DNA of 60,419 nucleotides. Origin: Candidatus Omnitrophota bacterium. GTDB taxonomy: Bacteria > Omnitrophota > Gorgyraeia > Zapsychrales > JANLHA01. The stretch is taken from NCBI GenBank assembly GCA_020632555.1, contig JACKFI010000010.1, positions 1 to 60,419 of the forward strand, given 5' to 3'. The position numbers and the translations under genes are program-made. Shown piece after piece: positions 931 to 28,996 of the stretch. How positions within the stretch are numbered: position 1 is the stretch's first letter; every line of letters starts with the position of its first letter. The notes beneath the pieces are model-generated. The model had not been told where the DNA came from and searched no databases. It was given only the letters and a program-made list of their open reading frames with translations.

Positions 931-1482
931 CTATCTTTTTTGCAATATCAATTGGTTCTTGTCTGAGTCGATTTGAAAAACAAAGTGTTTTAGAAACGAC
1001 ATGCCTAATAAGCCGTCGTAACTGCCACCTGTTTCTCGTTCGAGGACAACAGCAGGGATATTGGTCGCGCTGGCTCTTCCGATGCGCAGTTCTTTGAGGA
1101 TAATCACTCGGGCGGCCACGACATTGCCATTAGCGAGTTTGGCTTGGATGCGTTTGGCGGAATTTAAATCATAGCCAAGTTTGATGGCGACGCGTTTAGA
1201 GACTGTGACATTGCTGGCGCCGGTATCGACAATCAGATGAGCATGCATCTTTCGGTTGATGTGTGTATCAGCTAAATAACTGTTACCGACGCGTTTGAGT
1301 TTTACGACTTGTTTGCCTTGGGCAATACGGACAACGCCGCGGACAGCAATTCCTGTTAATTTTGCGGCTTCCCAGGTGACATCGGTGGCAAAATCAATAA
1401 CAGTGCAACCGGTGATTGTGACAAGCGTAAACAGAAGAATAAAAAATGACGAAGAGAAATTGTGTTTAGCCATAAAGACCAT
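931..1482 (-). CDS. retropepsin-like (clan AA) aspartic protease, probable lipoprotein
   Basis: Has the catalytic motif LIVDTGASNVTVS and a distal GLLGMSFL element typical of bacterial retropepsin-like proteases. The N-terminal signal has a lipobox-like LVTITGC. Confidence 0.7.
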   Translation of the reverse strand: MVFMAKHNFSSSFFILLFTLVTITGCTVIDFATDVTWEAAKLTGIAVRGVVRIAQGKQVVKLKRVGNSYLADTHINRKMHAHLIVDTGASNVTVSKRVAIKLGYDLNSAKRIQAKLANGNVVAARVIILKELRIGRASATNIPAVVLERETGGSYDGLLGMSFLKHFVFQIDSDKNQLILQKR

Positions 1483-1669: not shown

Positions 1670-4600
1670 TTAGTGCGGGGAAACCCTGATTTGCGTATGA
1701 GTTTTTTGTTTATTCCCTGAACGGTCGGTGGCGGTATAACGGAATATGTACACACGTTTGGGGTTTTGCGCTTTGAGCAAGATTTGACCGTTGTTATCAA
1801 TAATGATGTTTTTGGTTTTTATAGGATGTTTGGGATCAAAGATGGTAGTTTCTTTATTATCAATCATTACTATTGATTCTAATTCAACCTTAGGATTAGC
1901 ATCACAAACATCGGTAACGGTAATACTTGGGGTGACTTTGACCATTTTATTGTTTGGCGGCCAAAGGGAATGTGGTGTTATTTCAACTTTCAAGCCAGGA
2001 GCTATGGTGTCAATAATCTTGACCTTGATTTTGTCTGAATCTTCTGCTCCATAAGGATCTTTGACTGTTAATGTGAATTGATGTTTGCCCAGCGGCAAAA
2101 TCAGTCTTTGTGTTGGTGTCGAAATGGTGCCATTGGGTCCAAACCAGCGAAAACTAAGAGGATCTTGGTCAGGATCAGCTGATTTTGAACCGTCAAGTAT
2201 TACACGACTGCCACGAGGGTTATGACATTGTACTTTTTGATTCATCCCGGCATTGGCGATTGGCGCATGATTCAAATGCGCTGTTTTGCCCGGTAGAATA
2301 GTGGTCAGTGTTCCTTTGAAAATAATACTTATGGGATTTGTTCCGGTATTGATATAAGTCAGGGTATCGGGATAAAAAATAATTTTATCCTTGGTTTGCA
2401 GAACCGCGGTTGCTGTTGTATTGATTTTTGAAATAAACGTAACTTCAATAGGCCCGGATATCACCTGGGTTGATACGCTTCCACACGTGACGTTGAGGAT
2501 ATCACCCGCTGTTAAAGTATAGGTGGCAGATCCAGAACAGACACTCACATAAGCCGGGTTCGATCCACCGCTGGCAGCCGCGCTGATTGTTACCCCTTGA
2601 TTGGGATCTGGATCATCTGTGATTGAGAGATATTGATCACCGCGGTTGAGGATTGTTCCGGTTGTCGGCACAACAGATCGATGATCATTGAAGTCAGCAG
2701 AATATATGGCTGGGTTGACATCCACTTCGTCTGATAACCCATCATTATCATAATCCGTGCGATTTAAGTTTTCAGTAATCGTCTGAATAAGAGTTTGATT
2801 CGGCGCATGATGGGTGGCAGTATCGTATTTTTGCAGTTTCCTTTCTAAGTTGGATGGATTGTCATTTTCAAAATCAGGCAAATCTTCATCATAATAGCTT
2901 TGGTTAAACAGGCCCCAATTCCCGGAGGCATAAGTTTTGTATGACCATAGTGACCAGTTATATTTTTGTGCGTTAAATTGCGTTAAATAGTAAGCCCAAA
3001 CATCTTTGATATCAAATCCATTAAACTCCCCGATAAGCACTGGGACATTGTCAATCTGTTGACGGGAATCGCTAACTTTTTTGTTGATGAAAGCAATATG
3101 AGATGCTGTGACGTCAGATAATGTGATTCCTTGATATCGCCCCGGGTCATAACCATAGCATGTTTCGCCGGCGATGGGGGTCTCTCCTGCTTTGGGTTGC
3201 CAGCAATAGTAGTGAAATTGATACATCACATTATCCCACCCTTTGGTCTGTGGATTGGGAAGACTGTCCCAATTCCAAGCGCCTTCCATCACAATGACAT
3301 GATGATTATCGCCGACGGTATTTCGGATGGTGCTATAAAGATCGGTGTAAATGCCGTGCAAAAGAGAAAAGTCGCCCACATTGGAGTAAGCTTCAAATCC
3401 GGTGGGTTCATTGAGCAGATCATAGCCGACGACGGTGGTATTGTTGAAATAGTGTTGGGCAATCTTTTCCCATAATTCTTGTGTTCGTTGACGGTATGTT
3501 GGGTTTGCGGGGTTAAAGAGTTGATGTTTGAATCCCGGCGCTGGTTGTTGGTAAGACGAACGGCCCGTGTGAAATTCAGGGCCTTGTGCTCCCGGCGCTC
3601 CATGCAAATCCAAAAGGACATAAATGCCTCGATCTGCACAAGCTTCGACGATACGATCAATTGTTGCAAAATTGAAATTATTTCCGCAGGTCCATAAACC
3701 GTTATCGCTAAGGTCACATATATCGCGGTAATAAATCGGTAAGCGAATAAAATTAAATCCCATGCGCATGATATTGTCTAAGTCATTATTTTTGATGTAG
3801 GCTTGTTGATAAACATCAAGTGTGTGTTGGGCATTGTTGTCGAGATATTTTCTGATTGTCCAATCGTCGTAATATTTTCCTTTGAACGCTTCGGGATCAT
3901 TTCGCCCTTTTGTAAATTCATCTGTCTCCCCCATCATCCAAGGTTCCAAGAGAAGATAATTCCCAAGATTAACACCTTTGAGTTGGACAATATCGCCAAC
4001 GCCTTGCTGTTCTCTTAAATTGGTGCCGGCGGCTTGAACAAATCCGTTGGGGTCATAAAGCAGTGCAGGACTTAAAGCACTCGTATCCTTCGGTCCTACA
4101 GCAGAAACACGGTACCATTTTCCTAAATCTGAGGGTGATAAGGAAATTGTTTTTTGTGGCCCTGTATATATTGGGGTCCATGTTCCGTTACGATGATCAG
4201 CATGTTCAACTTTATATTGCGTGGCCAAAGAATGAGCGGACCACTCCAGTGACCCTTGCATTAAGCGGGAATGTTTGATTAAAATCGGCGGTGTTTGATA
4301 GGCAACAACATCGCTCCATTGAGAAATATAGGCGGCTGGTCCTTGTGGATTTACGGCGGTTTGCCAGCGAACTCGCAGCCATGACGGCATAAAATGATTG
4401 AGCGTCCATGTGGTTTCCGGGCCGTGATAAACGGTTGTCCATGGGCCGTGAGGTCCGGTTGAGCTTTCTTGTAATTCATATTGCCCGGCATCGGTTTGTT
4501 TTGTCCAAGAAACAGTTCCCGACGGTAAGACGTCTTTATCGATGGAACTTGTGGCGCGGGTAGCTCGGATATCATCGATATAATAATTTCCCGGCCAATA

Positions 4601-7051
4601 AAAAAGAAGTTGGATTTTGTTTAAATCATTAAGATGCAGGGTTGGATATTTTTTTAATAAATCTTGAAATAAAATTGTATATTCTGTCCATTGACCGTAT
4701 TCGGCTGTTTTTTTCATCCAGATTTCGGCCTTGGTGTTATCGGTGGCGTGTTGATCGTGGTCATAAAGTTGAATCGCGAGATTATTGTCCATTTTATTGA
4801 TGGATTGGGAGTTAATCTGCAAGGAAAGCCGGTCATTGAGCTGTGGGTTTAAATCGACATGCCAATAGTCTTGAGAAGCGCAGGACGAACTGAATTGACA
4901 GCGGCGTTCTTGTGACATTAACAGGGCGGAAAACCAGACGGATTCTGCATTGATGCTCAGTTTGTAGGAATGCTGTCCTTCATAAACCGGTTCTCCTGCT
5001 TGCGAATAGTGAGCGTCTCCACCTGACCAGAGTAAACCCGGATAGCTGGATGGTGGATTATCAATGGGTGTTAATTCAAAACTTTGATATTGACGGTCGT
5101 TAGATGTGATTTCAATATCATCAAAGTCATAAAGAGCAGAGTGATAATTGACAAACTCAATTTGTGTCACGTGACTCAAATTGAAGTTCGATGGGAGTTG
5201 GGAAAATAACACGGACAGTTGAGTCCATTGCTGAGGTTGTGCTTTTTGTGTTGTCCAAACTTCAAAACCAGAAGCATAAGAGCGGTCATCAAAGAATTTG
5301 ACGGCGACATTGTTGGGTCCTACTGATGGGTGAGGATAAATCCAAAACGTTATCCGGTCATTTCGCAAAGCATCAAAGTCGGCATATCCCAGCGCATTGC
5401 TGGGCTTAATTCTGACACCGCCCCAATTGCCGCCATTGGGGGTTTGCCGGCAGGCGCGAGAGCCTTGGTGAACTAATTCTTGCGAAACATCGGCTGAGGA
5501 ACCATTGATTCCTTCGCAATAATTTCCGATAGTTCCATTCTTTTCTTCAAAATTCTGAAAGATAAAACCATGTGGGTTGACCAAGCCTTTGATGTCTTGT
5601 TGGGTCAAAGCGATATTATAAATTCTCACGTCATCTAGTAAGCCTTTAAAGTCAAGGAATGGAGCGCCGGTTGCTTTTCCCAGCAGTAAGTCTCCGCTTG
5701 TCAGAGGCGTATAACCGGTTAAATTGTTGTTTTGTGCCGCTAACTGTCCGTCTAAATATAATTTTGCGCCGATGGTTTGATCAAAGGTTATTGCCAAATG
5801 ATGCCATTCATTCAAGTTTTGGTCGGCGATGCTAATAACTTTTTTGTCGCGATTGTAATCACAAAGGCCGCCGATGATATTAACGCCGGTTCCTTTGCCG
5901 CCCCATTGAAAGCCGCCGATGTTTATGCCCATTTGAACACCATCACCATATTGGCAGACATAATTGTTGGGAAAATTATCTCGCCAGCCTAAGAGCAAAC
6001 TTTGTACGGGATGAGCGGCTTTATACCAAGCTGCCAAAGTGAATTTTCCACCTGCACCAACGTCTAAAGATTTTGTGCTGCCTGCGGCATTTCTTGGGAT
6101 GAAAATATAATCGTCTATTCCGTCAAATTCCATTGCGCCACCCATTTTGCCTTGCGCTGTAAAGATCGGCCCGTTGGGTTGGATAGACCCATTGTTTTGA
6201 TTGCCGCTATTATCAAAAATAATTCCGTTTTCCGGCGCATTGTCAAACGAGTAATAGGCAACCAATGGGGATGACGAAGTTGTTGGGCCGGTTAATGCCA
6301 AGATTTCTTGTTCAGATAAAGCACGATTATAAATTCGGATTTCATCCAAAAGACCTTTAAAGTCTAAGAATGGAGTGCTTCTTGATTTTCCGATTAGCAA
6401 ATCGCCGGATGTCAATGGGCTATATCCGTTGAGATTGGGTTTTTCAGCGACCAAATGGCCATCTAAATATAATTTTGCCCCGGCATTGTGGTCATAGGTT
6501 AATGCTAAGTGATGCCATTCGTTGAAGTTTTGGTCGGGGACGCTGATAACTTTTTTGTCGCGATTGTAATCACAAAGGCCGCCGATGATGTTAACGCCGG
6601 TTCCCTTGCCCGACCACTGAAACCCATTGATATTAACGCCCATTTGTACGCCATCGCCGTATTGACATGCCGACGCATTGGGAAAGTTGTCTCTCCAGCC
6701 GAGGATTAAACTTTGGATGGGATGTGTGACTTTGTACCAAGCGGCCAGTGTGAAAGCTCCTCCCTTGGCAACATCCAGAGATGCCGCACCATTGGCATTG
6801 GTTCGTGGAACGAAAATATAATCATCAGCCCCGTCAAATTCTAAGGCGCCCCCTTGTTTGCCATCGGTTTTAAAAACAGGACCGTTGATTTGAATGGCTC
6901 CATTATTGGCATTGCCGCTGGCATCAAGAATAATGCCGTTTTGCGGCGCATTGTCAAAGGGGAAATACAGAACCAGTCCATCATCTGCGTAAAGTGTTGA
7001 ACATGAAAGAATGAGTAATGCTCCTAAAATGAACGAAATCGATTTCTTCAT
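1670..7051 (-). CDS. giant secreted multidomain glycoside hydrolase: 2x LamG, 2x CBM-like beta-sandwich, 2x FN3-like, GH5 catalytic domain, PKD-like and Ig-like C-terminus
   Basis: Signal peptide MKKSISFILGALLILSC. Two 237-aa LamG_3-type repeats end in GLLDEIRIYNRALSEQEI and GLLDDVRIYNIALTQQDI. GH5 hallmarks are present: NLGNYLLLEPWM, GFNFIRLPIYY, LLDLHGAPG, YDLLNEP (acid/base) and LIGEFNG (nucleophile). Also has a Ca-binding-like DYDNDGLSDEVD, a PKD-like ILDGSKSADPDQDPLSFRW and a C-terminal Ig/HYR-like segment. Confidence 0.85.
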   Translation of the reverse strand: MKKSISFILGALLILSCSTLYADDGLVLYFPFDNAPQNGIILDASGNANNGAIQINGPVFKTDGKQGGALEFDGADDYIFVPRTNANGAASLDVAKGGAFTLAAWYKVTHPIQSLILGWRDNFPNASACQYGDGVQMGVNINGFQWSGKGTGVNIIGGLCDYNRDKKVISVPDQNFNEWHHLALTYDHNAGAKLYLDGHLVAEKPNLNGYSPLTSGDLLIGKSRSTPFLDFKGLLDEIRIYNRALSEQEILALTGPTTSSSPLVAYYSFDNAPENGIIFDNSGNQNNGSIQPNGPIFTAQGKMGGAMEFDGIDDYIFIPRNAAGSTKSLDVGAGGKFTLAAWYKAAHPVQSLLLGWRDNFPNNYVCQYGDGVQMGINIGGFQWGGKGTGVNIIGGLCDYNRDKKVISIADQNLNEWHHLAITFDQTIGAKLYLDGQLAAQNNNLTGYTPLTSGDLLLGKATGAPFLDFKGLLDDVRIYNIALTQQDIKGLVNPHGFIFQNFEEKNGTIGNYCEGINGSSADVSQELVHQGSRACRQTPNGGNWGGVRIKPSNALGYADFDALRNDRITFWIYPHPSVGPNNVAVKFFDDRSYASGFEVWTTQKAQPQQWTQLSVLFSQLPSNFNLSHVTQIEFVNYHSALYDFDDIEITSNDRQYQSFELTPIDNPPSSYPGLLWSGGDAHYSQAGEPVYEGQHSYKLSINAESVWFSALLMSQERRCQFSSSCASQDYWHVDLNPQLNDRLSLQINSQSINKMDNNLAIQLYDHDQHATDNTKAEIWMKKTAEYGQWTEYTILFQDLLKKYPTLHLNDLNKIQLLFYWPGNYYIDDIRATRATSSIDKDVLPSGTVSWTKQTDAGQYELQESSTGPHGPWTTVYHGPETTWTLNHFMPSWLRVRWQTAVNPQGPAAYISQWSDVVAYQTPPILIKHSRLMQGSLEWSAHSLATQYKVEHADHRNGTWTPIYTGPQKTISLSPSDLGKWYRVSAVGPKDTSALSPALLYDPNGFVQAAGTNLREQQGVGDIVQLKGVNLGNYLLLEPWMMGETDEFTKGRNDPEAFKGKYYDDWTIRKYLDNNAQHTLDVYQQAYIKNNDLDNIMRMGFNFIRLPIYYRDICDLSDNGLWTCGNNFNFATIDRIVEACADRGIYVLLDLHGAPGAQGPEFHTGRSSYQQPAPGFKHQLFNPANPTYRQRTQELWEKIAQHYFNNTTVVGYDLLNEPTGFEAYSNVGDFSLLHGIYTDLYSTIRNTVGDNHHVIVMEGAWNWDSLPNPQTKGWDNVMYQFHYYCWQPKAGETPIAGETCYGYDPGRYQGITLSDVTASHIAFINKKVSDSRQQIDNVPVLIGEFNGFDIKDVWAYYLTQFNAQKYNWSLWSYKTYASGNWGLFNQSYYDEDLPDFENDNPSNLERKLQKYDTATHHAPNQTLIQTITENLNRTDYDNDGLSDEVDVNPAIYSADFNDHRSVVPTTGTILNRGDQYLSITDDPDPNQGVTISAAASGGSNPAYVSVCSGSATYTLTAGDILNVTCGSVSTQVISGPIEVTFISKINTTATAVLQTKDKIIFYPDTLTYINTGTNPISIIFKGTLTTILPGKTAHLNHAPIANAGMNQKVQCHNPRGSRVILDGSKSADPDQDPLSFRWFGPNGTISTPTQRLILPLGKHQFTLTVKDPYGAEDSDKIKVKIIDTIAPGLKVEITPHSLWPPNNKMVKVTPSITVTDVCDANPKVELESIVMIDNKETTIFDPKHPIKTKNIIIDNNGQILLKAQNPKRVYIFRYTATDRSGNKQKTHTQIRVSPH
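5561..6982 (-). repeat. in-frame 711-bp tandem duplication encoding the two LamG domains
   Basis: Protein repeats at aa 24-260 and 261-497 look roughly 70 percent identical by eye. At the DNA level a 42-nt block (aacttttttgtcgcgattgtaatcacaaaggccgccgatgat) is identical at 5837..5878 and 6548..6589, an offset of exactly 711 bp. Confidence 0.9.
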
Positions 7052-7147: not shown

Positions 7148-9130
7148 TCATTGAGCATGGTCATTTAAGGTATCGGTTAATTGTTTATGAAGAGTTTGGG
7201 CTTGGGAGGCAAAATGACTGTTGGCGTAGCGGCTCAGAGCCAAATTTTGAATAAAAAAATCATATTTTCGCAAGGTGAAAAGCTTTAAATCCTTCCCGTG
7301 GTCATCGGTATCTTTAATAGCTATTAAGTAAGACTTGATTTTTAGGAGCATTGCTTCTGCTTTAATAAAATCCAAATTATTCAGGGCGTATAATTGGGCT
7401 AGATCAATGGATGTGATGATCAGAGAAAAATAATCTGATTCTTGTTTTGATTTTATTGAGGAGAGTGATTCCATGGCTTTTTCATAATCGAGTATGGCGC
7501 TGTGATATTCTTTTCGCCAGCGATTCACACCGGCGGATGCTTGTAAGGCATGTGCCGCTAGACGATGATCTTGAATGTTGTCAGCATATTGCCAGCAGGC
7601 ATGATAGCAATTTAATATCTTAAAATAAGAATCGGGTATTGATACTTGAGATTCCTGGATGGTGGACTCTCTTGGGGTAAAGATTAGGCGCTCAAGCAAT
7701 ATTTCGTTTGATTTGTCCGCGAGCGTGCAGAAACTTTGTGCCAGGAGTTTGGGATTGTTGGTTTTTTGGGCTTGCGCAAGGTGTTGTTTTAACGATGTTA
7801 TTTCTAAAGAATCATCTGGCGATGGGATGGTTAATTGTGTCAGGTGATTTTGTTTATTTGCAGGATAGACTTGTGTGGTTAGTTTTTGAGTTGAGGTAAA
7901 ATTGTCAACCAAGGTTATCGAATGAGGCCGGCGAATATTTTTAGATTTCAATAAGATGAATCCTGTGAGCAACACAATTCCTAACAGTCCGATTATGAGT
8001 AAAAGAATATTCTTTGTGGTGATCTTGCTCCAAGCCGATTTCTTTAAAGAAGATTTTAATCCTCTGGGAAATGGCGAATATTTGGGATCGCCGTAGAGAA
8101 CGTAACCAGCCCAGACGATATTTTCTTCGCCAAATTCTTTCATTGCTTTAAGTCTGGCTTGGCGCAAAGCCTCTCCAATGGCAGCTCCCTTTTGGATGTA
8201 TTTGTAAAATTCGCTGGCGATGATAAGCCCAACAGAATCCGGAATTTCCCAGAGTGTTCCTACATAATGGCGGATGCCAGCAGTGAGGAAAGCATGAACG
8301 AGCCCAAAACATTTTTGTTCATAATCGTCACTAATATTTACGGAAGCAATATGCGCGGATTGGCAGGAATTTAGAAAAATAAATAATGGAAAGGCAGATC
8401 CTCCCTGCATGTTCTGAATTTCCTTGGGAGAAAATAGGCCGTCGGATAGTCGACAGCCTCCTAAGGATTGTTGGTTCTCGATTGGATCGGTGTGTCCGGC
8501 AAAATGGACAAAATCATAATCGCGGATGTTGCGCGTTACGTAATCAACAGTGATTTCTCCGGTTTTAGTCGACACAGCCAGGATTTCCCGGTTGCAATCC
8601 AGATGTTCACGAATCAGTTGAATTTCCTTTCGTGCGCCGGGTAGATCACCGGTCGCATCAGCCAGCAGTAACATTTTTAGGGGAAATCGGGGTTGACGTT
8701 GAGCTTGATCGATTAATGGTTGTGTTGTGATGACGCGGCGCCCTACATTGAATGCTAAACAGAGAAAGTTTTCCCCGTTAAAAAGCAGTTCCCAGGGAAT
8801 AAAAACCAGTGGTTCATCAAGTCGGATCACCAGATTTTCACAGGTGGTTTTTTTTATTTGATCTTTGACTCGTCTTGTGAGCAGGCGATCATAAAGAATG
8901 TGACAGATTTGCTTTAATTCTTGGAGTAATCCAGAAGATAATCGTCCTAAGGTATTGGACTTGTTTAAGAGGAGCCGGACTTCGCAGCAAAGATTTTCAA
9001 TTTCTTTGAAATTAAAAGAAATTTCTTCTGATTGATAAAAGGGAGTATTTTCATCAGAAATGCTGATGATCAGCATATTTTGTTTGCTGGAAATATCCAG
9101 AAATAAGGATGTTGAAGGGGTTTTTATCAT
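7148..9130 (-). CDS. membrane-anchored CHAT-domain (caspase-like) protease with C-terminal helical-repeat domain
   Basis: CHAT hallmarks are IPWELL, the His motif FVHFAGH (H213) and the Cys motif FIFLNSCQSA (C256). A single TM helix ILLLIIGLLGIVLLTGFILL spans about aa 375-394. The following roughly 265 aa are helical and TPR-like. There is no signal peptide. The start overlaps the upstream stop (TAATG). Confidence 0.8.
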   Translation of the reverse strand: MIKTPSTSLFLDISSKQNMLIISISDENTPFYQSEEISFNFKEIENLCCEVRLLLNKSNTLGRLSSGLLQELKQICHILYDRLLTRRVKDQIKKTTCENLVIRLDEPLVFIPWELLFNGENFLCLAFNVGRRVITTQPLIDQAQRQPRFPLKMLLLADATGDLPGARKEIQLIREHLDCNREILAVSTKTGEITVDYVTRNIRDYDFVHFAGHTDPIENQQSLGGCRLSDGLFSPKEIQNMQGGSAFPLFIFLNSCQSAHIASVNISDDYEQKCFGLVHAFLTAGIRHYVGTLWEIPDSVGLIIASEFYKYIQKGAAIGEALRQARLKAMKEFGEENIVWAGYVLYGDPKYSPFPRGLKSSLKKSAWSKITTKNILLLIIGLLGIVLLTGFILLKSKNIRRPHSITLVDNFTSTQKLTTQVYPANKQNHLTQLTIPSPDDSLEITSLKQHLAQAQKTNNPKLLAQSFCTLADKSNEILLERLIFTPRESTIQESQVSIPDSYFKILNCYHACWQYADNIQDHRLAAHALQASAGVNRWRKEYHSAILDYEKAMESLSSIKSKQESDYFSLIITSIDLAQLYALNNLDFIKAEAMLLKIKSYLIAIKDTDDHGKDLKLFTLRKYDFFIQNLALSRYANSHFASQAQTLHKQLTDTLNDHAQ

Positions 9131-9789
9131 TATTCTTGATACAGTTCTAAGCTAATTCTGGCAATTGGATGATGCGTCGCGGTGATGTCGACAACATACC
9201 GTCCATCGCGCATGTTTTCAAAGTTGGTTTTGCCTTTATCGGTGATATGGGATTCTAACTCCATATCGTTTTCCAAAAGAGTGATGCGAAAATCATTGAC
9301 GGGGGTATGTGTTTTGAGATCTTGCGCGCAAATGACAATTCGGTTTGTTGAATTTTGGGCACGTTCGATTTCCACTTGAATACCAACCGCGCTAAAATCT
9401 TTCTTGATCAGAATAGTTTTGGGGTTCTGGGCAGTCTGACCTCGCAAAGGTTGTGCATAAGACAGGATCGGATTAACAAAAACACCATCGGATTTGAACA
9501 TTTTAACTGCGTCTTTGGTAAAGTGAACCACCAAACTCCAAACGCGTGTTCCAAATGGTTGATGGACCAGGTTTTTGGCGTTTTGAATCACATGTTTTGG
9601 CACAGTTGGCAGATTTTCAGGTGTAATAAGTTTTGCGATCTCTTTTTGAATTCGAACTTCTTCTTGTAGGGCAAGATCATCTTTGATCAAATGGGCAATT
9701 GCTTTTTGTTCTTTGACGGACAATAATCCTTCCGCAAAATATCCGAGCAATTCATCTTGATTCTTATTCCAACACAATTTCTTAGTCAT
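9130..9789 (-). CDS. soluble anti-sigma-factor-like protein (hypothetical)
   Basis: Sits immediately after the ECF sigma gene. The ATG at 9789 is preceded by GAGGG with 5-6 nt spacing and overlaps the sigma stop (ATGACTAA); the longest ORF would start at 9834. The N-terminus (CWNKNQDELLGYFAEGLLSVKEQKAIAHL) resembles a ZAS-type anti-sigma helix but lacks the CxxC. No TM helix. The C-terminus is beta-rich (GRYVVDI, CarboxypepD_reg-like). Confidence 0.4.
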   Translation of the reverse strand: MTKKLCWNKNQDELLGYFAEGLLSVKEQKAIAHLIKDDLALQEEVRIQKEIAKLITPENLPTVPKHVIQNAKNLVHQPFGTRVWSLVVHFTKDAVKMFKSDGVFVNPILSYAQPLRGQTAQNPKTILIKKDFSAVGIQVEIERAQNSTNRIVICAQDLKTHTPVNDFRITLLENDMELESHITDKGKTNFENMRDGRYVVDITATHHPIARISLELYQE

Positions 9790-10402
9790 GATTTCCCTCA
9801 TTGCTGATTGGGTTAAGCTGTTGGATATCAGCATAATTTCTTAATTTATTTAAAACTCGATTTTTTCGGACATAAAGGGTATCAACGGAAATGAGAAATT
9901 TATCTGATATTTCCTGGGCAGACAAATGATCAAAATAGCACATTTCCAGAATCTTTCGTTCGTCGGTCGACAATTGTGCTAATAAAGCTTTAAGCTGTTC
10001 AGCGGTGTCGATTCTTTCTTGTTCACTTTTGGGACAGGTTATTTCCATGTCTTGGATCAAGCGGGTGTAGGGACCGTTTTCCATGAGAACATCATCGATT
10101 CCGATATATTTATTGCTTTTCTTTAAATAATTAATGGTATGACAAACAGCTATTCTCCGCAGATAGGCCAATAGACAGGGTTTGTTGTCGCCTTTGAATT
10201 GTTTTAATCCTTTGTCCAGAAGAATAACAAAGACATCCTGACACAATTCGTCGGTATCATTCGAATTTATGCGGCGTCCATACCCATGCGCGGTACGCAG
10301 AATGCAATGATAAATCCAGCGGGAATAGTCATCGACGAATGTATCCCATGCGATTTTGTTGTTTGAAAGACATTGTTTGATTAATTCTGATGTTTGATCC
10401 AT
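9782..10402 (-). CDS. ECF-type RNA polymerase sigma-70 family factor
   Basis: Region 2 (ELCQDVFVILLDKGLKQF...AYLRRIAVCHTINYLKK) and the region 4.2 HTH (LSAQEISDKFLISVDTLYVRKNRVLNKLR) are present. At 206 aa it has no region 1 or 3. Confidence 0.85.
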   Translation of the reverse strand: MDQTSELIKQCLSNNKIAWDTFVDDYSRWIYHCILRTAHGYGRRINSNDTDELCQDVFVILLDKGLKQFKGDNKPCLLAYLRRIAVCHTINYLKKSNKYIGIDDVLMENGPYTRLIQDMEITCPKSEQERIDTAEQLKALLAQLSTDERKILEMCYFDHLSAQEISDKFLISVDTLYVRKNRVLNKLRNYADIQQLNPISNEGNHD

Positions 10403-10407
10403 AAGAT

Positions 10408-11166
10408 TTATTCTCGGTGATTTGTGAATGCGGTGGCTTTTAACTGGATAAGGTCTAAAGCGTATTCACCTTTTTCATCAAAGATTGAAACACAATTCTT
10501 TTGGTTTACGGAGTCATTATTATGTGAGCAAATCATGAATTTTTGCTTACATAAACATTCTTTCTCTTGTTGGCGGGAATTTCCGGACGCCAGGAGAATA
10601 TCATCATAATAATAGGTTCCGTCCCAGTAATTGAAAAATTCAATTTTAGTCACGTGTTTGAGATCAAAATCTTGCGGTAAATCGTTGAAATAAATTTCTA
10701 AGCGGGTCCATTCTCTGTATTTGGCGCGTTGATTTTCTTTTGTCCAGATGCCGACGCCAGTATCTTGATACTGCCCTTGATCGAAGAATTTGAGCATAAC
10801 GGTGTGGTCGCCCACCTGTGAGGGATCAGACCAGATCCAGAATGATATTCGGTCATAACAGTATTCGATGAAATTCATATTGAAGCTTTGTGTTGCAGAA
10901 ATAATTGCTGTGCCGGCGTGAACCTTGGGACCTTGCGGAACGGTTACCGCCCAGGAATAGGTTCCGCTGTGCACCGGTTCTCCGGGGGCTGACCGTTGGA
11001 CAACCGCTTCGTTAAAGCCCCAGCCATATTCTATTGGCAATGAGTCGCGATTGTCCCGATGAGGGGTCCCATTATTATTTTCAAAATTCTGGTATATTGT
11101 TTCGGAAAAACAGCTAGCTGACAGTATTTGGAAAAAAAATAGAATAGTACTTATTAAAACACGCAT
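10408..11166 (-). CDS. secreted CBM-like beta-sandwich protein, paralogous to two modules of the giant GH5 protein
   Basis: Signal peptide MRVLISTILFFFQILSASC. Shares an ordered motif set with giant-protein aa ~498-650 and ~655-830: FENNNGT / GEPVHSG.YSW / RISFWIW / VMLKFFD / W.......W / DLPQDFDLKHVTKIEFFNYWDGTYYYDDI. The stop is 5 nt before the sigma gene start. Confidence 0.6.
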   Translation of the reverse strand: MRVLISTILFFFQILSASCFSETIYQNFENNNGTPHRDNRDSLPIEYGWGFNEAVVQRSAPGEPVHSGTYSWAVTVPQGPKVHAGTAIISATQSFNMNFIEYCYDRISFWIWSDPSQVGDHTVMLKFFDQGQYQDTGVGIWTKENQRAKYREWTRLEIYFNDLPQDFDLKHVTKIEFFNYWDGTYYYDDILLASGNSRQQEKECLCKQKFMICSHNNDSVNQKNCVSIFDEKGEYALDLIQLKATAFTNHRE

Positions 11167-11380: not shown

Positions 11381-12868
11381 TGGGAATGATACCATTGATC
11401 CTTACCCCCTGATCCCTGCGGAGGCGACGAAAATTTTATGCATCACAGACTCAGTTTTTCAAACCATCAAACAGCAATATCTGGCATTTTGCCAAGGTCT
11501 CAGGACACGTCCCAAAATAAAATCTTTCGCTACAGGTCAATTACGAAAGAAATATTCACTAAAAAATCAACCCATGGCCCAATCTCAACATTTTTCGGCC
11601 TACGAGCCCAGCACAGCCATCACCGTCAATGAATGTGATTACCGCCGTTGGTGCCGCGTTGCCGAATGGTTTAACCAATACGGACCTGATGCCGAATATT
11701 AAAAAAAATCTGTTGATCAAATAGAAATGGACACATAATGGCTCCAAGAATCCGTCGCAGGATTAGAAAGGAGTCCAATAACTTATGTGTCCGTATAAAT
11801 ATTATCATGTTATGAGACAAAGCAAAGATAAAAAACAGTGGCGTTACCAGATGGTTCAAAAGGCTCTGGAGATCGGTATCAAGCCTACAGCCAGACTTTT
11901 TGCAACCTTCCCATCGGTGGTACGCAAATGGGTCAAACGCTTCGAGGTCGAAGGTTATGCCGGCCTGGAAGATCGCTCTCACAAACCCCACTACTGCCCC
12001 GGCACCACACCAGAATCTATGAAAAAATTCATCGTCAATCTAAAAAGCAAATACAAGCGTTTGGGTGCAGAACATATCCGGGACTTAGAAGGTTTAACTT
12101 GCGCCCCCAAGACCATGCGCAAAATATGGAAAGAGGCCGGCATCCCCTCGAGAAAACGACCCAAAAAACATGTCACAAAGAACAACCTGCGTGCTGTAAA
12201 AATGCTCTTTGAACTCTTCGAGCAATCCATGGAGGACACCAAAGACCTCATGGATATTCCCGAATACTTCCTCCAAGCTAAATTGCTTAATCTGCCCAAA
12301 GTTCAATACACCTTCCGGGAAGTCTCCTGCGGCATTCTTTTCACAGGCTTTGCCAATAATCTCTCGCTAACACATTCGCAACTATTTGCCGTCTATATTA
12401 ACCACTTCCTCAAGAAATTTAACGCCCTACCGGAATCAGCCATGCGACAAACTGATAACGGCAGCGAATTTATCGGCTCATGGAATGCTAAACAATCTTC
12501 TGCCTATACCAAAACCATTGAATCCATCCCAGGCCAATGGCATAACACCATTTTCCCCGGCGCACATCGCATGCAATCTGACGTCGAGACGATTCACAAT
12601 CTCATGGAGATGGAATTCTTTGAGATTGAACAATTCAAGAATAGGGCGGACTTCTTTAACAAAGCCACGTCCTATCAATTATTCTTCAACCTGCATCGCA
12701 CAAACTCTTACAAAGAACACAAAACACCTTGGCAACTGGCTCAAGAAAAGAAACCAGACTTGGACAAGCGTTTGCTTATGGTTCCTCCGGTCGATCTCGA
12801 TAAACTTCTGAGCTGGAAAATATCTCTTACTCAATCAAAGGGGGGTAACGATCACTTGACCGTTCCCT
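11381..12868 (+). mobile_element. insertion sequence, rve/DDE transposase type (IS481-like; subfamily uncertain), 1488 bp
   Basis: Imperfect terminal inverted repeats: left end tGGGAATGATACCATTGATCCTTACCCCC against the reverse complement of the right end aGGGAACGGTCAAGTGATCGTTACCCCC (about 22 of 28 positions). It is bracketed by a perfect 16-bp direct repeat and carries one transposase ORF. Confidence 0.75.
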
Positions 12869-12870
12869 AA
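11785..12870 (+). CDS. DDE (rve) transposase, IS481-like
   Basis: N-terminal HTH plus AGLEDRSHKPHYCP (IS481-type DRSxxPH motif). The rve core has QTDNGSEF and SDVETIHNLME (the E of the DDE triad). The stop codon TAA (12868-12870) spans the IS/flank junction. Confidence 0.8.
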   Translation: MCPYKYYHVMRQSKDKKQWRYQMVQKALEIGIKPTARLFATFPSVVRKWVKRFEVEGYAGLEDRSHKPHYCPGTTPESMKKFIVNLKSKYKRLGAEHIRDLEGLTCAPKTMRKIWKEAGIPSRKRPKKHVTKNNLRAVKMLFELFEQSMEDTKDLMDIPEYFLQAKLLNLPKVQYTFREVSCGILFTGFANNLSLTHSQLFAVYINHFLKKFNALPESAMRQTDNGSEFIGSWNAKQSSAYTKTIESIPGQWHNTIFPGAHRMQSDVETIHNLMEMEFFEIEQFKNRADFFNKATSYQLFFNLHRTNSYKEHKTPWQLAQEKKPDLDKRLLMVPPVDLDKLLSWKISLTQSKGGNDHLTVP

Positions 12871-14652: not shown

Positions 14653-14787
14653 GTCATTGCGAACGAAGCGTCAACCATCAAGGTTGACGCGAGAGTGCAG
14701 AAGTTAGGAAACTTCTGACGAAGCGTCAACCATCAAGGTTGACGCGAGAGTGCAGAAGTTAGGAAACTTCTGCCGCAGTGAAGCAAT
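14653..14787. repeat. nested palindromic element (GTCATTGCGA...GAAGCAATC ends) carrying a perfect 55-bp tandem duplication
   Basis: The units 14663..14717 and 14718..14772 are identical. Each holds two hairpins, GCGTCAACC-atcaa-GGTTGACGC and GCAGAAGTT-aggaa-AACTTCTGC. Confidence 0.9.
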
Positions 14788-16899: not shown

Positions 16900-17252
16900 G
16901 GGATGGGGTGTTGATTTAATAACATATGGTAAATAGATAATAATTTTGGATAATTAACTGAATCTTTTGGGGTCATTTCCAATGCTCGAATTGCGGTTAT
17001 ATGTGCATTCTGGGGATCATTGTTGGTGAGGTGGCTGTTTATTAGATCAGACCAAACTGTGATATCGGAGGGGTCGATTCTGCTTAAATAATCATAATAA
17101 ACAATTGCGGCGGGGATATCTTTTCCTTTCCCGGGGTTATGGTAAATATGCCAAAGAAATCCTACGCGTTGCAGATGAATGACATCAACATTTATTCGAA
17201 ACAAAAAGATTGCAAAGATTGAATAAAAGAAAAATGATCGTTTAAGTAGCAT
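16896..17252 (-). CDS. small membrane-anchored protein with TPR-like helical region (hypothetical)
   Basis: One N-terminal TM helix (FFFYSIFAIFLF) and a helical remainder. The stop overlaps the HAD start (ATGA). Confidence 0.4.
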   Translation of the reverse strand: MLLKRSFFFYSIFAIFLFRINVDVIHLQRVGFLWHIYHNPGKGKDIPAAIVYYDYLSRIDPSDITVWSDLINSHLTNNDPQNAHITAIRALEMTPKDSVNYPKLLSIYHMLLNQHPIP

Positions 17253-19328
17253 TTAATTTCTTCTTGAGTTAGGCTGCCGGTATAAAAAACCGAGTATACA
17301 AAATGCAACGGCCATTGTTATTAAAACAAAAACATATATCCCCTGTCCGCCTGGGGGTTGATAGCGAAATTGAACAATATTCTCCCCTGCTGGGAGGTGG
17401 ATTCCTTTAAAGGCACCATGAGCTCGTGTAATTTTGGTCTCTTTGCCATTTATAAATGCCTTCCAAAAGATAGAATACGCGTCATGATAAATTAAGAATT
17501 TCTCGGAAGAAAAGTTTGTTTGGAATTTTAATGAATTGACATCAAAATGTAAGATTTTAAATTCCTTGATATTTTGTGTTATTTTGAGAGGCGTCTCCTC
17601 TTTAATGCCTCCTGCCGGCTCAGAGTTGTAAATTATAATTTTGTTTTTGATGTATTCGTCTTTCTGTAACGATGGGGCATTGTAAAAATCAAAAACATAG
17701 CTGTTGAGAAAATCCGGTTGAAAATTTACTTTACCTGAGCTGTCCTGAAAGTCGCCTAAATGAACAAACATTGAATACAGCGAATCCCCAAATTGAGTTG
17801 GAATATCGTGGCCGGGTCGCAAATATTCAAAGCGTGGCTCATTATGGGTTTGCGGTAATTGATAAATAGCGGATGATGTATTATTGCGATAGCAAATAAA
17901 AACATAAATTGGTTCTATAACAATAAGTACTGTTAAGAATAGGAGTAATAACTGAGGTTTTTTTGTAAAGAATCTTAAGGTCAAGAGGATAAAGAATAAT
18001 AAACTTAATAGGACTGTTGTATATGTTGCTGGGATGATATTGCCTTGAGTCTGCAGAAACAGCAAGATGAGTATGTGGCTGAAGATAATAAATAGAAAGA
18101 ATAATGCTTTATGCTTTGTGCTTGAGAGTTGTTCTATTGAGCTCTTGAGTTGGGCGACGGTGAACAAAATGAATAAAGGTATTAAGAAAGCACTATAAAA
18201 GAATAAATTTCGAAAATATTTAAATATGAAAATATGCTCGAAAAGTATTTTATAAAGCGGTGTTGCTCCCCCTAAAGAAATAAGAAATATGGTGCAAAAG
18301 GTACTAAAAATAATCAATCGTTTGCGGTCCATGATTGTGAACATAGCGAGAAATAGAACAATGAAACTAAATGAGGAAACATAAATAAAGCTGTCATCAT
18401 TATAATTGAATTTATCTAGGTGTGAAAAAAGTCTCCCGCCTGCAAAACGCTCTCCAAAGGAGCCATCGAAGGCTACTTCTTTAAATTGCATTTCAGCTCG
18501 ATTTTGGCATTGTTCTGTAATTGAACAAGCATGCCGAGCGGGAGAAAGGATTTCATCGGTGTTATTGACTGTTTTAAATAAGAGTGTTGGAATCAATGCG
18601 ATTAAAATAAACAAAGCGCCTAACGAAGTAATAACTGGATGCCGTCTTATAAAATACAAAGTATTCAATAGTTTCTTGAGAAACAAGCTCTGCAATATGA
18701 GCATGGTGCATATTAAAAATATACAGAATAGGCATATGAAATAAAAAGGGATGTAGGAAAAAGCAAGGATCATTAAGCAACAGATCATTCCCCAAAATTG
18801 CTTGATTTTCAACTTATTAAGAAATTTTAGAAAGAATATGAAGAACCAAAGGGCTGGAACAAATAACAGAAGAATGAAAACTTGGTTAAAAATCATAACT
18901 GGCAAGCCGGAAAACATTAAAAAACAAACAGCAATTAAGGCATAACTATCGTTGTGTAGGATGATCTTATTTAATTGAAAGAAACCGAAAATTCCGAGTA
19001 AAAGATAGGATGTTAGGTATATGAGATATAAGTGATAATAATTAATGCCGACAAAATGCAGCAGGTATATGGGGAAAATAAGGATGTTCAGGACACCCGT
19101 TACCGCTAAATGAATATGAGGGCGACCTAAATAGACATATGGTTCCCATAGAGGGATTACTCCGTTGAATAAATTATTAAAGAAATATTTAAAAGTTCCA
19201 TAAGTGGAATAGGAATCAATGTTGACTACGATAGTGTTGTTTAGAAAGTCGCGAAAGATGAATAGCCATACAGCGTAGAGTACGACAATGAGGGAGTAAA
19301 CAAAAGGTTTGTTGAGTTTAGGGTGCAT
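17253..19328 (-). CDS. YfhO-like GT-C fold membrane glycosyltransferase (putative)
   Basis: 691 aa with more than 10 TM helices. The N-terminal loop ...NIDSYSTYGTFKYFFNNLFNGVIPLWEPYVYLGRP and the C-terminal beta domain plus final TM (GENIVQFRYQPPGG...) match my recollection of the YfhO architecture. Confidence 0.5.
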   Translation of the reverse strand: MHPKLNKPFVYSLIVVLYAVWLFIFRDFLNNTIVVNIDSYSTYGTFKYFFNNLFNGVIPLWEPYVYLGRPHIHLAVTGVLNILIFPIYLLHFVGINYYHLYLIYLTSYLLLGIFGFFQLNKIILHNDSYALIAVCFLMFSGLPVMIFNQVFILLLFVPALWFFIFFLKFLNKLKIKQFWGMICCLMILAFSYIPFYFICLFCIFLICTMLILQSLFLKKLLNTLYFIRRHPVITSLGALFILIALIPTLLFKTVNNTDEILSPARHACSITEQCQNRAEMQFKEVAFDGSFGERFAGGRLFSHLDKFNYNDDSFIYVSSFSFIVLFLAMFTIMDRKRLIIFSTFCTIFLISLGGATPLYKILFEHIFIFKYFRNLFFYSAFLIPLFILFTVAQLKSSIEQLSSTKHKALFFLFIIFSHILILLFLQTQGNIIPATYTTVLLSLLFFILLTLRFFTKKPQLLLLFLTVLIVIEPIYVFICYRNNTSSAIYQLPQTHNEPRFEYLRPGHDIPTQFGDSLYSMFVHLGDFQDSSGKVNFQPDFLNSYVFDFYNAPSLQKDEYIKNKIIIYNSEPAGGIKEETPLKITQNIKEFKILHFDVNSLKFQTNFSSEKFLIYHDAYSIFWKAFINGKETKITRAHGAFKGIHLPAGENIVQFRYQPPGGQGIYVFVLITMAVAFCILGFLYRQPNSRRN

Positions 19329-19329
19329 T

Positions 19330-19980
19330 TTAAAGGTTTATTTTTGTTTTTTTCCCTGTGCAAAGTAAGTAGGTGTGGTGGATTTGTAAAGTTTTTTGTG
19401 TGAAAATTATAAACTCTTTTTGAATCATTGACATAAGCATTTCTTGGCTTTTGGGATAGCTACCTCTGTCCATGGACCATAGAAATCTTCCCTTCCAGGA
19501 TTGTGGAAGCCAAATAGCATCGGCAAAAAAGAAAATTCCTGTATCTTTTAATACACGTGAACTTTCTGAAATTAACATAATAAGCTGATTTTCTGTTAGA
19601 TGATGCGACATCATGGTGCATTGAATAATATCTACGCTTTGGTTTTTTAACGGAATATTTGTCGCATCGGCCAGCAGAGGAATTCCATGAACTATAGATT
19701 TGTGAGTAAATCCAATGAGTTTTTGGATGTCATTATCCAGACACATATAGAGTTTGACATCTTCCCAGATGTTTTGGTAAATTCCGGTTCCACCACCGAG
19801 ATCAATAATAATCTTTGATTTAGTTTGTGATTTAGCCATTTCCGCAAGATTTTTATATATGATTTTGGAACCAACAAGTTTCTGAACAGAATCATAAAAG
19901 GCAGGATGTTCCATGAATTTGTGCAGGATATTCTTGATGAGATTAGGTATCATAATTTTTAAAGAGTTAAGTTGTTTCAA
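19330..19980 (-). CDS. class I SAM-dependent methyltransferase
   Basis: SAM motif I IIIDLGGGTGIY. 216 aa. Overlaps the aminotransferase gene's 3' end. Confidence 0.7.
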   Translation of the reverse strand: MKQLNSLKIMIPNLIKNILHKFMEHPAFYDSVQKLVGSKIIYKNLAEMAKSQTKSKIIIDLGGGTGIYQNIWEDVKLYMCLDNDIQKLIGFTHKSIVHGIPLLADATNIPLKNQSVDIIQCTMMSHHLTENQLIMLISESSRVLKDTGIFFFADAIWLPQSWKGRFLWSMDRGSYPKSQEMLMSMIQKEFIIFTQKTLQIHHTYLLCTGKKTKINL

Positions 19981-21097: not shown

Positions 21098-21115
21098 AGG
21101 TTATTTGATATCTTT

Positions 21116-22147: not shown

Positions 22148-22204
22148 GGAATATCTCCCAGATTTTGTGAATACATTAACATGTTAATAATGTGCGGAGT
22201 TCAT

Positions 22205-22969: not shown

Positions 22970-23038
22970 AATAAAACCTTTAGTGAATGAGTTAATAGAT
23001 AGATTTAAGGATGTTTTTTCTAGTGAACATAACGCAGA

Positions 23039-23965: not shown

Positions 23966-23975
23966 AAGTATAATA

Positions 23976-24809: not shown

Positions 24810-24854
24810 TAGATAGTCTCAATCAAACTTAAAAGTAATATTAGAGAATTTATT

Positions 24855-26498: not shown

Positions 26499-26521
26499 AT
26501 CTATTTTATTGTTCGTTTAGT

Positions 26522-28927: not shown

Positions 28928-28996
28928 GATTTTCTGGATATTTATTAAGCAGTTTAGTTATAGAAGCAGGATATCACAATAGTTAGTATATTTGAT

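Follow-up and report, generated by a model that had tools for sequence, protein, structure and literature searches.

A Membrane-Spanning CHAT Protein, a Soluble Anti-Sigma Factor, and an ECF Sigma Factor as a Probable Protease-Gated Signaling Module of Candidatus Omnitrophota

Introduction

How might a membrane-spanning, caspase-like protein that is encoded beside a sigma factor come to control that sigma factor? The question is raised by a 60,419-nucleotide (nt) stretch of DNA from a Candidatus Omnitrophota bacterium (contig JACKFI010000010.1), the whole of which is referred to here as 'the window'. Five consecutive minus-strand genes within it encode a small secreted protein ('gene 1'), a sigma factor of the extracytoplasmic function (ECF) type, a protein of 219 amino acids (aa) which is interpreted here as a soluble anti-sigma factor (the 'middle' protein), a protein possessing a CHAT protease domain, a single transmembrane (TM) helix, and helical repeats resembling tetratricopeptide repeats (TPRs), and lastly a large secreted protein carrying LamG-like and GH5 glycosidase domains. 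The genes are tightly packed, that is, with gene 1 and the sigma gene separated by only 5 nt (ATCTT), the sigma and middle genes overlapping by 8 nt (ATGACTAA), and the middle and CHAT genes overlapping as TAATG. An earlier examination of the same DNA, made without database searches and called here the sequence-only reading, had described this gene order, the gap, and both overlaps, along with a single TM helix in the CHAT protein, a middle protein lacking both a TM helix and a CxxC motif, and a promoter motif shared by the operon and the GH5 gene, all of which were found upon re-checking to be as described.

In bacterial signaling a central theme is the freeing of ECF sigma factors once their anti-sigma factors have been proteolyzed, and CHAT proteases have only recently been tied to the control of sigma factors, i.e., in type III-E CRISPR systems and with the protein DdvA. 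The answer proposed here is that this locus probably is a trans-membrane module which controls its ECF sigma factor by means of caspase-like proteolysis within the cytoplasm, with cleavage of the middle protein by the CHAT protein being the step which we infer. What carries that reading is, in turn, the conservation of three of the five genes as a unit, the nature of the middle protein, the makeup and predicted orientation of the CHAT protein, and the placement of a distinctive promoter.

A Conserved Trio of Genes

One genome per species (185,579 species) was scanned for relatives of the CHAT protein, with 278 species genomes yielding matches. The module is common in Omnitrophota and is found as well in Desulfobacterota. 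The loci examined further were the best, i.e., most similar, 80 of those 278, within which sigma and middle genes were scored using hidden Markov models built from seven sigma and seven middle proteins. Among these 80 loci the anti-sigma gene is found immediately upstream of the CHAT gene in 75, and the sigma gene is present as well, directly before the anti-sigma gene, in 71. The co-occurrence of CHAT and ECF sigma genes which the sequence-only reading had anticipated upon the mining of gene neighborhoods is in fact what is seen. Four of the five loci without a middle gene possess less than 240 nt of upstream DNA, as due to a contig end, such that only a single locus (L072, with L-numbers designating individual related loci) truly lacks that gene. 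L072 is a locus with a cyclase-type, extended CHAT architecture, and is without both sigma and anti-sigma genes.

The gap between anti-sigma and CHAT genes has a median of 4 nt. Taxonomically the loci are mostly from Candidatus Omnitrophota or from bins labelled Planctomycetales, with others from Desulfobacterota (including the complete genome of Desulfonema magnum), Binatia, and Nitrospirota. Closest to the window are L001, L003, and L004, whose full-length CHAT relatives are 89-46% identical and which possess the same five-gene cassette in different flanks. Further out are CHAT-TM-TPR proteins of about 730 aa from Candidatus Omnitrophota, with 33-40% identity and, directly upstream, a sigma gene of about 200 aa and a gene of about 230 aa. 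Clustering of flanking open reading frames (ORFs) turned up no other family near the level of conservation seen with the trio, and flanks indeed vary between loci. As judged from these gene neighborhoods, the sigma, anti-sigma, and CHAT genes represent a conserved module and not a chance neighborhood.

The Sigma Factor and Its Putative Inhibitor

In profile searches the 206-aa protein matches TIGR02937 (sigma70-ECF) at 69.6 bits over aa 18-190 (cutoff 42.9) and Sigma70_r4_2 at 41.1 bits (cutoff 25.7; 1.4e-10), with its match to Sigma70_r2, at 18.6 bits, falling below the cutoff of 24. By these matches it is an ECF sigma factor, that is, a protein of about 200 aa which consists of sigma2 and sigma4 regions.

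The middle protein is less readily recognized. Taken alone, the 219-aa sequence gives only a weak anti-sigma-E match (NF010501 at 0.0037). Searched as a family profile built from 39 members, on the other hand, it matches among solved structures RslA (3hug_B, 1e-4), RsiW (5wuq_C, 2e-4), and DdvA (8rlz, 5e-4), and also ChrR (0.03) and RsrA. An AlphaFold2 (AF2) model, based upon an alignment of 19 sequences and with a mean predicted local distance difference test score (pLDDT) of 70, displays helices at aa 11-19, 25-35, 39-54, and 65-75 (pLDDT 63-81), which is the four-helix arrangement of class-I anti-sigma domains. These are followed by a predicted disordered linker (aa 93-124, pLDDT <50) and then a confidently modelled Ig-like beta-sandwich (aa 125-216, pLDDT ~90), with Foldseek searches using this model returning generic Ig/FN3 folds only. 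A word-indexed protein search, made to deepen the multiple sequence alignment, found 5 proteins at first and 18 subsequently. When 1.84 billion representative proteins (clusters at 50% identity) were scanned in full using HMMER, a family of 758 clusters at E<=1e-10 was revealed, nearly all of 200-240 aa.

By sequence the family belongs to the so-called ZAS (zinc-binding) anti-sigma factors, with the zinc motif HxxxCxxC retained by 218 of 236 members (92%). That motif (H-x3-C-x2-C) is missing from the window's 219-aa protein, AHLIKDDLAL standing in its place, and has been lost as well by the rest of the window clade and by a few others. As judged by sequence the window's protein is a non-zinc member of a ZAS-derived anti-sigma family, one which is predicted to bind the sigma factor encoded just upstream. 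It lacks a TM helix (maximum Kyte-Doolittle hydropathy over 19 residues, KD19, of 0.65), as do essentially all of 75 anti-sigma relatives, for which KD19 is below 1.7 with but one exception (1.76) and only three marginal segments (1.63-1.76) are seen.

The most conserved column of the family lies elsewhere. Arg116 (QPL-R-GQ) is Arg in 234 of 236 members, versus 92-93% for the zinc ligands, and belongs to a motif, P-x(0-4)-[VLI]-R-[SG], that is located in the predicted disordered linker. Indeed, in the window clade as well as in L011, L018, L021, L079, and L080, the Cys ligands have been lost and the trio, the catalytic dyad of the CHAT protein, and the linker Arg all have been kept. Arg116 is put forward here as the candidate site of cleavage by the CHAT protease, i.e., [VLI]-R|[SG].

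The CHAT Protein and Its Predicted Topology

The CHAT domain matches PF12770 over aa 76-348 at 124.7 bits, versus a cutoff of 24 (E=6.4e-36). Its catalytic dyad had been assigned by the sequence-only reading to H213 (of HFAGH) and C256 (of NSC), and both codons were located (Table 1). As this reading had also supposed of orthologues, the dyad is conserved, with His and Cys invariant in 81 of 81 relatives. These two residues lie outside of the peptide patterns that were employed in the genome scan, several other invariant positions instead lying inside of those patterns and being ascertainment-biased. An AF2 model (mean pLDDT 76) shows a CHAT fold over aa 1-350, a long TM helix (aa 372-398), and helical repeats (aa 442-655). 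Its best matches among solved structures are with Csx29 (8eey_B, E=7e-8) and then SAVED-CHAT, separases, and DdvA (8rot), together ranging from 7e-8 to 2e-3, so that the closest solved folds, i.e., Csx29, SAVED-CHAT, and separase, are those of signaling proteases. As modelled, the domain has a caspase/separase-type fold and is predicted to be a protease of the clan CD caspase fold with an intact dyad. The C-terminal half matches TPR proteins (Foldseek, ~2e-3), and the repeat region of this 660-aa protein aligns with canonical TPRs found in the ~730-aa relatives.

Orientation may be judged from three lines of evidence. An N-terminal signal peptide is absent from all 81 of the CHAT proteins. A TM helix is found at the same place in 77 relatives, with on average 5.1 Lys or Arg among the 15 residues before the helix versus 1.9 after it, and with the N-side count exceeding that of the C-side in 67 of those 77. 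Lastly, in certain variants from Desulfobacterota the CHAT domain is preceded, on its N-terminal side, by an adenylate/guanylate cyclase domain, which is a type of domain that acts in the cytoplasm. From the lack of signal peptides, the charge bias, and the cyclase fusions, a cytoplasmic location is predicted for the protease domain and an extracytoplasmic one for the repeats, in line with the protease-inside, repeats-outside topology of the sequence-only reading.

As to specificity, the invariant acidic residues of the CHAT family (D105, E114, E169, D206, and D298) could, speculatively, form an S1 pocket. Metacaspases prefer Arg or Lys. An Arg at P1 would, by analogy, fit with other clan-CD enzymes, including separase, which cuts after Arg in ExxR (quoted in PMC11506125).

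The architecture of the CHAT protein is also seen in variant forms. A Desulfobacterota-type extension of about 250 aa precedes CHAT in L017 (5302-8592) and also in L016, L019, L024, L035, L057, L069, and L072. With L017 that extension is the adenylate/guanylate cyclase domain (2.3e-24), and beyond the TPRs there is a segment resembling CsgG. Such fusions suggest a cyclic-nucleotide output or input besides the sigma factor. Giant versions exist as well (L023, 5881-11610, and L033, 5995-11724, both 1909 aa; L010, 3828-7583, 1251 aa), in which the TM helix is followed by TPR units numbering in the dozens and for which sigma and anti-sigma genes still are directly upstream.

Promoters and the Local Regulon

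Two copies of a promoter motif, TGTAAGATTT-N10-TTTGTCT, are found in the window, one before the operon (P1) and the other before the GH5 gene (P2), with no third site there even upon allowing up to 3 mismatches. The sequence-only reading had proposed that the module is wired both to the operon in which it lies and to the GH5 gene, and their sharing of this promoter motif supports that proposal. In L001, L003, and L004 a relaxed pattern yields exactly two sites each, at positions equivalent to P1 and P2. That is, all three of these orthologous loci, with protein identity as low as 46%, have kept the sites, while the surrounding intergenic DNA has diverged.

With a simple pattern, 58 sites are found on the module strand of the related loci taken together, versus 6 on the other. 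A two-block position weight matrix (PWM), with consensus TGTTAGATTT-N12-CGTCTATT, gives 103 sites on the module strand versus 4 on the opposite strand (>=18 bits, 887 kb). Fifty of the PWM sites lie about 20 nt before anti-sigma genes, at which place they overlap with the sigma gene's 3' end. Another 27 are before the gene for a secreted BNR/Sortilin-like protein of about 520 aa, 8 are before gene-1 or GH5 genes, and 2 are before sigma genes. A sigma-70 type promoter was rejected as an identification of this motif, the -10 block being (C/T)GTCT rather than TATAAT and a separate TGnTATAAT being found before the sigma gene in most relatives. Accompanying the module across phyla as it does, and with a -10 element of the GTC type, the motif is best explained, going by sequence, as the cognate promoter of the module's sigma factor, which presumably recognizes it.

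Placement of these promoters differs between clades. Within the main Omnitrophota clade (L007, L025, L028, L030, and about 40 others), TGnTATAAT is found 12-15 nt before the sigma ATG and, because of that short distance, the sigma mRNA would be leaderless or nearly so. This arrangement indicates, so far as sequence can, that the sigma factor is expressed constitutively and that the anti-sigma and CHAT genes are expressed under an ECF-dependent feedback. In the window clade it is the ECF-type promoter which precedes the whole operon, sigma gene included.

The presumed target outside of the operon is, for the window, the 1793-aa GH5 protein, which by Pfam consists of a signal peptide, two Laminin_G_3 (LamG-like) domains, a GH5 Cellulase domain (8e-29), and PKD/Ig domains. 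A GH5 protein follows the CHAT gene also in L001, L003, L004, L012, and L013, with a CBM11 (CBM_11) protein found there instead in L018 and L021. In 33 loci (e.g., L007, 10263-11825) the CHAT gene is followed by the ~520-aa secreted protein, which has a Sortilin-Vps10/BNR-type N-terminal region and which seems to take the place of the GH5 protein of the window clade. The C-terminal half of that protein is uncharacterised.

Gene 1 is directly upstream of the sigma gene in L001, L003, L004, L011, L012, L013, L018, and L021. By BLASTP its product resembles the GH5 protein twice over, its alignment to aa 497-660 having 36% identity (E=1e-23) and that to aa 655-828 having 28% (E=8e-12). As judged by these alignments it is a stand-alone copy (paralogue) of a module which is twice present in the GH5 protein, and it possibly serves as a co-sensor or ligand-binding partner. 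Gene 1 as a CBM11 protein was considered and rejected, hhalign giving a probability of 0.1 between the two families.

Proposed Mechanism and Its Rivals

The module may be envisaged as working as follows. At rest the sigma factor would be held by the 219-aa protein, whose N-terminal class-I anti-sigma domain would contact it, while the 660-aa single-pass membrane protein would present its CHAT protease to the cytoplasm and its TPR-like repeats to the periplasm. A signal, probably polysaccharide-linked and possibly relayed by the secreted gene-1 protein, would be sensed outside by the repeat domain and thereby activate the protease inside. The CHAT protease would then cut the anti-sigma factor in its disordered linker at Arg116, with the sigma-bound fragment subsequently lost, presumably via housekeeping proteases. 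The freed sigma factor would transcribe from TGT(A/T)AGATTT-N12-(C/T)GTCT promoters, i.e., those of its own operon (gene 1, sigma, anti-sigma, and CHAT) and of the LamG/GH5 gene. Stated in full and for the family as a whole, namely, as a periplasmic TPR sensor that allosterically switches a cytoplasmic CHAT protease across one TM helix, resulting in a soluble ZAS anti-sigma factor being cut at an invariant Arg and an ECF sigma factor being freed for the expression of secreted glycan-degrading or glycan-binding proteins, with this being an inside-out version of the classical route that is both widespread and undescribed, the proposal is one to which we would give about an even chance.

Several points weigh against this mechanism. 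Binding of the sigma factor by the anti-sigma factor, and cleavage of the latter by the CHAT protein, are what we infer from sequence and models. After a cut at Arg116 all four of the anti-sigma helices (aa 11-75) would still be intact and, with the sigma-binding helices thus spared, a further degradation step or else some role for the C-terminal domain must be assumed. Such follow-up degradation is needed as well for RseA and Csx30 (PMC10028731). The zinc motif kept by 92% of the family is typical of redox-sensing soluble anti-sigma factors, and members possessing it could answer a cytoplasmic cue without any protease. The window's own CHAT protein is neutral in its charge bias, with 4 Lys or Arg on each side of the TM helix, such that its topology is predicted from the trend seen in the family along with the lack of a signal peptide. 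The loci from which conservation is judged are, in addition, the most similar of the relatives found, and the PWM was trained on the 58 pattern sites that are among its 103, leaving the strand asymmetry and the 45 additional sites as the independent evidence.

The zinc motif leads to one alternative, in which the anti-sigma factor is itself the redox or zinc sensor, in the manner of RsrA or ChrR, and the CHAT-TM-TPR protein is not its protease but a co-regulated output, acting for example as a protease on other cytoplasmic substrates or as an envelope-remodelling or cell-fate effector. The anti-sigma factor is indeed soluble, with HxxxCxxC in most of its family, and as an ECF-type promoter directly precedes the anti-sigma and CHAT genes in most loci, CHAT would be a member of the regulon. 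Anti-sigma genes, however, are commonly found within their own sigma factor's regulon, making regulon membership compatible with a regulatory role, and the linker Arg is more conserved than are the zinc ligands, being kept along with trio and dyad in those lineages from which the Cys ligands are gone. Anti-sigma and CHAT genes are, furthermore, almost always adjacent and translationally coupled across phyla, as is typical of interacting partners, and we view this alternative as unlikely. Still less probable is regulation by the CHAT-TM-TPR protein without proteolysis, that is, with this protein serving as a membrane tether that holds the anti-sigma/sigma pair via the Ig-like domain and that releases or captures it in a ligand-dependent manner (partner switching or sequestration). 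Such tethering would give a role to the conserved, well-folded C-terminal Ig-like domain, which otherwise is without evident function, and would avoid the difficulty of a cut which alone would not remove the sigma-binding helices. The invariance in 81 of 81 relatives of the catalytic His and Cys, and of surrounding motifs, argues instead for retained catalysis, and it is within a disordered linker, and not at a folded interface, that the invariant Arg is found.

The cassette might also be viewed as having been left by the degradation of a type III-E CRISPR system (Craspase), or of some other anti-phage defense, or as a satellite of such a system, with Csx29 the best structural match of the CHAT domain and with some relatives found in Desulfonema, a genus that also carries type III-E (PMC10028731). 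The window, nonetheless, contains no CRISPR array as sought using TRF and a k-mer array finder, and no Cas7-11-sized ORF, the only ORF exceeding 801 aa being that of the GH5 protein. Among 30 neighboring ORFs scanned, with all of the largest included, there is no cas-type Pfam match but instead matches of housekeeping, glycan-biosynthesis, or insertion sequence (IS) type (FtsH, SecDF, Mfd, GatAB, TsaD, TilS, PdxJ, QueH, PFK, RecN-like), or none. An Rfam scan of the window returned one tRNA only. The k-mer array finder detected no CRISPR-like array in 88 related loci either, ORFs of at least 900 aa in those loci being only CHAT proteins, GH5-type proteins, and two other large proteins, such that the CRISPR independence that the sequence-only reading had claimed extends to related loci, with no cas genes or arrays seen in the flanks of 84 of them. 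PADLOC models did not match the window's CHAT, anti-sigma, or gene-1 proteins, their few matches, all weak or generic (E>=0.003, or with TPR-repeat models), being limited to sigma factors and the CHAT-TPR relative of L007. With an anti-sigma factor that is not Csx30-like, neighbors that are housekeeping genes, and a conserved regulon of secreted glycan-active or BNR-type proteins, a remnant of a defense system is, as judged by gene content, effectively excluded.

A repeat that could be mistaken for a CRISPR array does occur directly after the CHAT gene of the Desulfonema magnum locus (L045, 7902-9083; NZ_CP061800, ~1.627 Mb). It consists of two head-to-head tandem arrays, with a 61-62-nt unit repeated x9.9 and a 58-nt unit repeated x9.7, 97-98% identical and with a shared inverted-repeat core. 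It was rejected as a CRISPR array, there being no unique spacers.

Comparison with Known Systems

Protease-gated release of ECF sigma factors is already known. What is proposed to be new here is a widespread architecture that combines a membrane-spanning protease with a soluble anti-sigma factor. The sequence-only reading had known of no described route of ECF activation employing a membrane CHAT protease, a statement which is outdated given the publication of DdvA (PMC11506125) and of CHAT neighbors of ECF54 (PMC8999054). A published description of the sigma/anti-sigma/CHAT trio was not found in a literature search that was incomplete and that did not include ECF-classification supplements.

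With Craspase (Cas7-11, the TPR-CHAT protein Csx29, Csx30, and CASP-sigma/RpoE), Csx29 cleaves the sigma inhibitor Csx30 (PMC10028731). The module considered here similarly possesses a CHAT protease beside a soluble sigma inhibitor and an ECF-type sigma factor, and the logic proposed is alike, i.e., a protease cuts the inhibitor and the sigma factor activates nearby genes, including its own locus. Craspase differs in having Cas7-11, a CRISPR RNA (crRNA), Csx31, and an array, and in being activated by target RNA, rather than, as is proposed here, by a periplasmic repeat domain acting across a TM helix. The domain order is CHAT-TM-TPR versus TPR-CHAT for Csx29, with CHAT identity between the two of about 13%, and the inhibitor is a class-I/ZAS domain plus Ig-like domain that displays no match to Csx30 in sequence or fold. 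Csx30 homology of the middle protein was rejected, in that neither a PDB profile search nor Foldseek found any, with 8eey, which contains Csx30, present in the library. Of the searches which the sequence-only reading had called for with this protein, that against anti-sigma domains succeeded (RslA, RsiW, DdvA, ChrR) and that against Csx30 did not. Similarly, its picture of a CHAT/anti-sigma/ECF cassette with type III-E logic holds for the cassette but fails with regard to a Csx30-like middle protein. Because that protein belongs to the ZAS family and is not Csx30-like, the likeness to type III-E would be one of logic and of CHAT fold, and not of whole-module homology. The module, possessing neither Cas7-11 and an array nor a Csx30 substrate, is not a type III-E Craspase.

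DdvA/DdvS (PMC11506125) comes close in its parts, having an ECF sigma factor, a ZAS domain, a single TM helix, TPRs, and a CHAT domain with a His-Cys dyad, and CHAT-mediated proteolysis has been proposed as the trigger there too. DdvA, however, is one polypeptide, with its anti-sigma domain inside and TPR-CHAT outside, for which self-cleavage followed by RseP action is proposed, and its regulon is a CBASS/CRISPR defense island. Here the anti-sigma factor is separate and soluble, CHAT is predicted to be cytoplasmic with the repeats outside, no intramembrane protease is required, and the regulon would consist of secreted glycan-active proteins. With anti-sigma and CHAT on separate proteins, CHAT N-terminal to the TM helix, and no signal peptide, the module is not of the DdvA type. 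DdvA-like proteins have been reported in several Myxococcota species and one Comamonas species (PMC11506125).

CalpL/CalpT/CalpS (bioRxiv 10.1101/2024.05.08.593097) is likewise a trio, that is, of SAVED-Lon protease, anti-sigma factor, and ECF-like sigma factor, and shares with the module a signal-activated cytoplasmic protease and a soluble anti-sigma factor. Its protease, though, is Lon rather than CHAT, its signal is cyclic oligoadenylate as bound by SAVED, and it is CRISPR-associated. Classical regulated intramembrane proteolysis (RIP), as with DegS/RseP-RseA-RpoE and with RsiW (PMC10028731, PMC11506125), also leads from an envelope signal via an anti-sigma factor's proteolysis to ECF release, and a further degradation step is likewise probably needed there after the first cut. 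With RIP, though, serine and zinc proteases cut a membrane-spanning anti-sigma factor, first on the outside and then inside of the membrane itself, whereas here it is the protease which spans the membrane and the anti-sigma factor which is soluble. As the anti-sigma factor is not membrane-spanning, classical site-1/site-2 proteolysis does not apply, and the module is not a RIP-controlled one of the RseA/RsiW type. The module belongs, that is, to none of the Craspase, CalpL/T/S, DdvA, or RIP systems. ECF54 sigma factors (PMC8999054, PMC7826278) share with the module an association between ECF and CHAT, their neighbors being CHAT, subtilase, or carboxypeptidase proteins, and proteolytic control has been proposed for them. 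They are actinobacterial, though, and have been described without any anti-sigma factor, whereas here one lies between sigma and CHAT, which, by gene context, sets the module apart from ECF54.

Should the mechanism proposed here be true, then CHAT/anti-sigma/sigma logic exists as an ordinary, CRISPR-free pathway of envelope sensing, with the module being an independent cellular equivalent of the CHAT/sigma arm of type III-E, to which it is possibly also related in evolution, as well as a main route of environmental sensing in Omnitrophota. Specific predictions are a cleavage site (Arg116), a promoter consensus, and a local regulon, i.e., the LamG/GH5 enzyme in this genome and the ~520-aa BNR/Sortilin-like protein in most relatives. 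These would provide a handle on how polysaccharide attack is regulated in largely uncultured, very small bacteria, and a compact protease-gated sigma switch could serve as a synthetic-biology part.

Features of the Locus and Its Surroundings

Table 1. Coordinates of the cassette and its parts, with positions counted from the first letter of the window
Feature	Position	Strand	Remarks
Promoter P1	11240-11266	-	TGTAAGATTT-N10-TTTGTCT(AAT), 74 nt upstream of gene 1; PWM 23.7 bits
Gene 1	10408-11166	-	252 aa; N-terminal signal peptide; no Pfam/NCBIfam match
ECF (group IV) sigma factor gene	9782-10402	-	206 aa
Putative soluble anti-sigma factor gene (middle gene)	9130-9789	-	219 aa from MTKKL start
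Predicted class-I anti-sigma domain of 219-aa protein	9565-9774	-	aa ~6-75; zinc motif lost
Arg116 codon	9442-9444	-	Candidate scissile site [VLI]-R|[SG]
Ig-like beta-sandwich of 219-aa protein	9142-9417	-	aa 125-216; AF2 model
CHAT-TM-TPR protein gene	7148-9130	-	660 aa
CHAT domain, predicted protease	8087-8905	-	Predicted cytoplasmic; His213 at 8492-8494, Cys256 at 8363-8365
Single TM helix of CHAT protein	7949-8008	-	aa 375-394; KD19 up to 3.05
Helical-repeat (degenerate TPR-like) domain of CHAT protein	7166-7807	-	Predicted extracytoplasmic; presumed sensor
Promoter P2	7106-7132	-	TGTAAGATTT-N10-TTTGTCT, 54 nt upstream of GH5 gene; PWM 20.8 bits
LamG/GH5 secreted protein gene	1670-7051	-	1793 aa

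Directly after the GH5 gene is a gene for a retropepsin-like aspartyl protease (931-1482, minus strand; gag-asp_proteas, 6.5e-20), with the same gene found after the GH5 gene of L001 (13078-13710). On the other side of the cassette, between it and a RecN-like gene, is a 361-aa ORF (11785-12870, plus strand) with matches to HTH_32, HTH_28, and an IS481 leucine zipper. As the RecN-like gene of the orthologous L001 locus adjoins the cassette without this ORF, a recent insertion beside promoter P1 is suggested.

Between the RecN-like gene and that for phosphofructokinase is a perfect tandem duplication (14663-14772; 55-bp unit, 2.0 copies, 100% match), each unit of which seems, as judged by eye, to contain two short inverted repeats. 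Further along, from about 17000 to 30500, is a block of low GC content (0.33-0.38 versus ~0.42 elsewhere) that encodes YfhO-like and DUF2079 membrane proteins, a GT2 glycosyltransferase, methyltransferases, a DegT aminotransferase, and a sugar dehydratase, and which probably is an island for surface-glycan biosynthesis.

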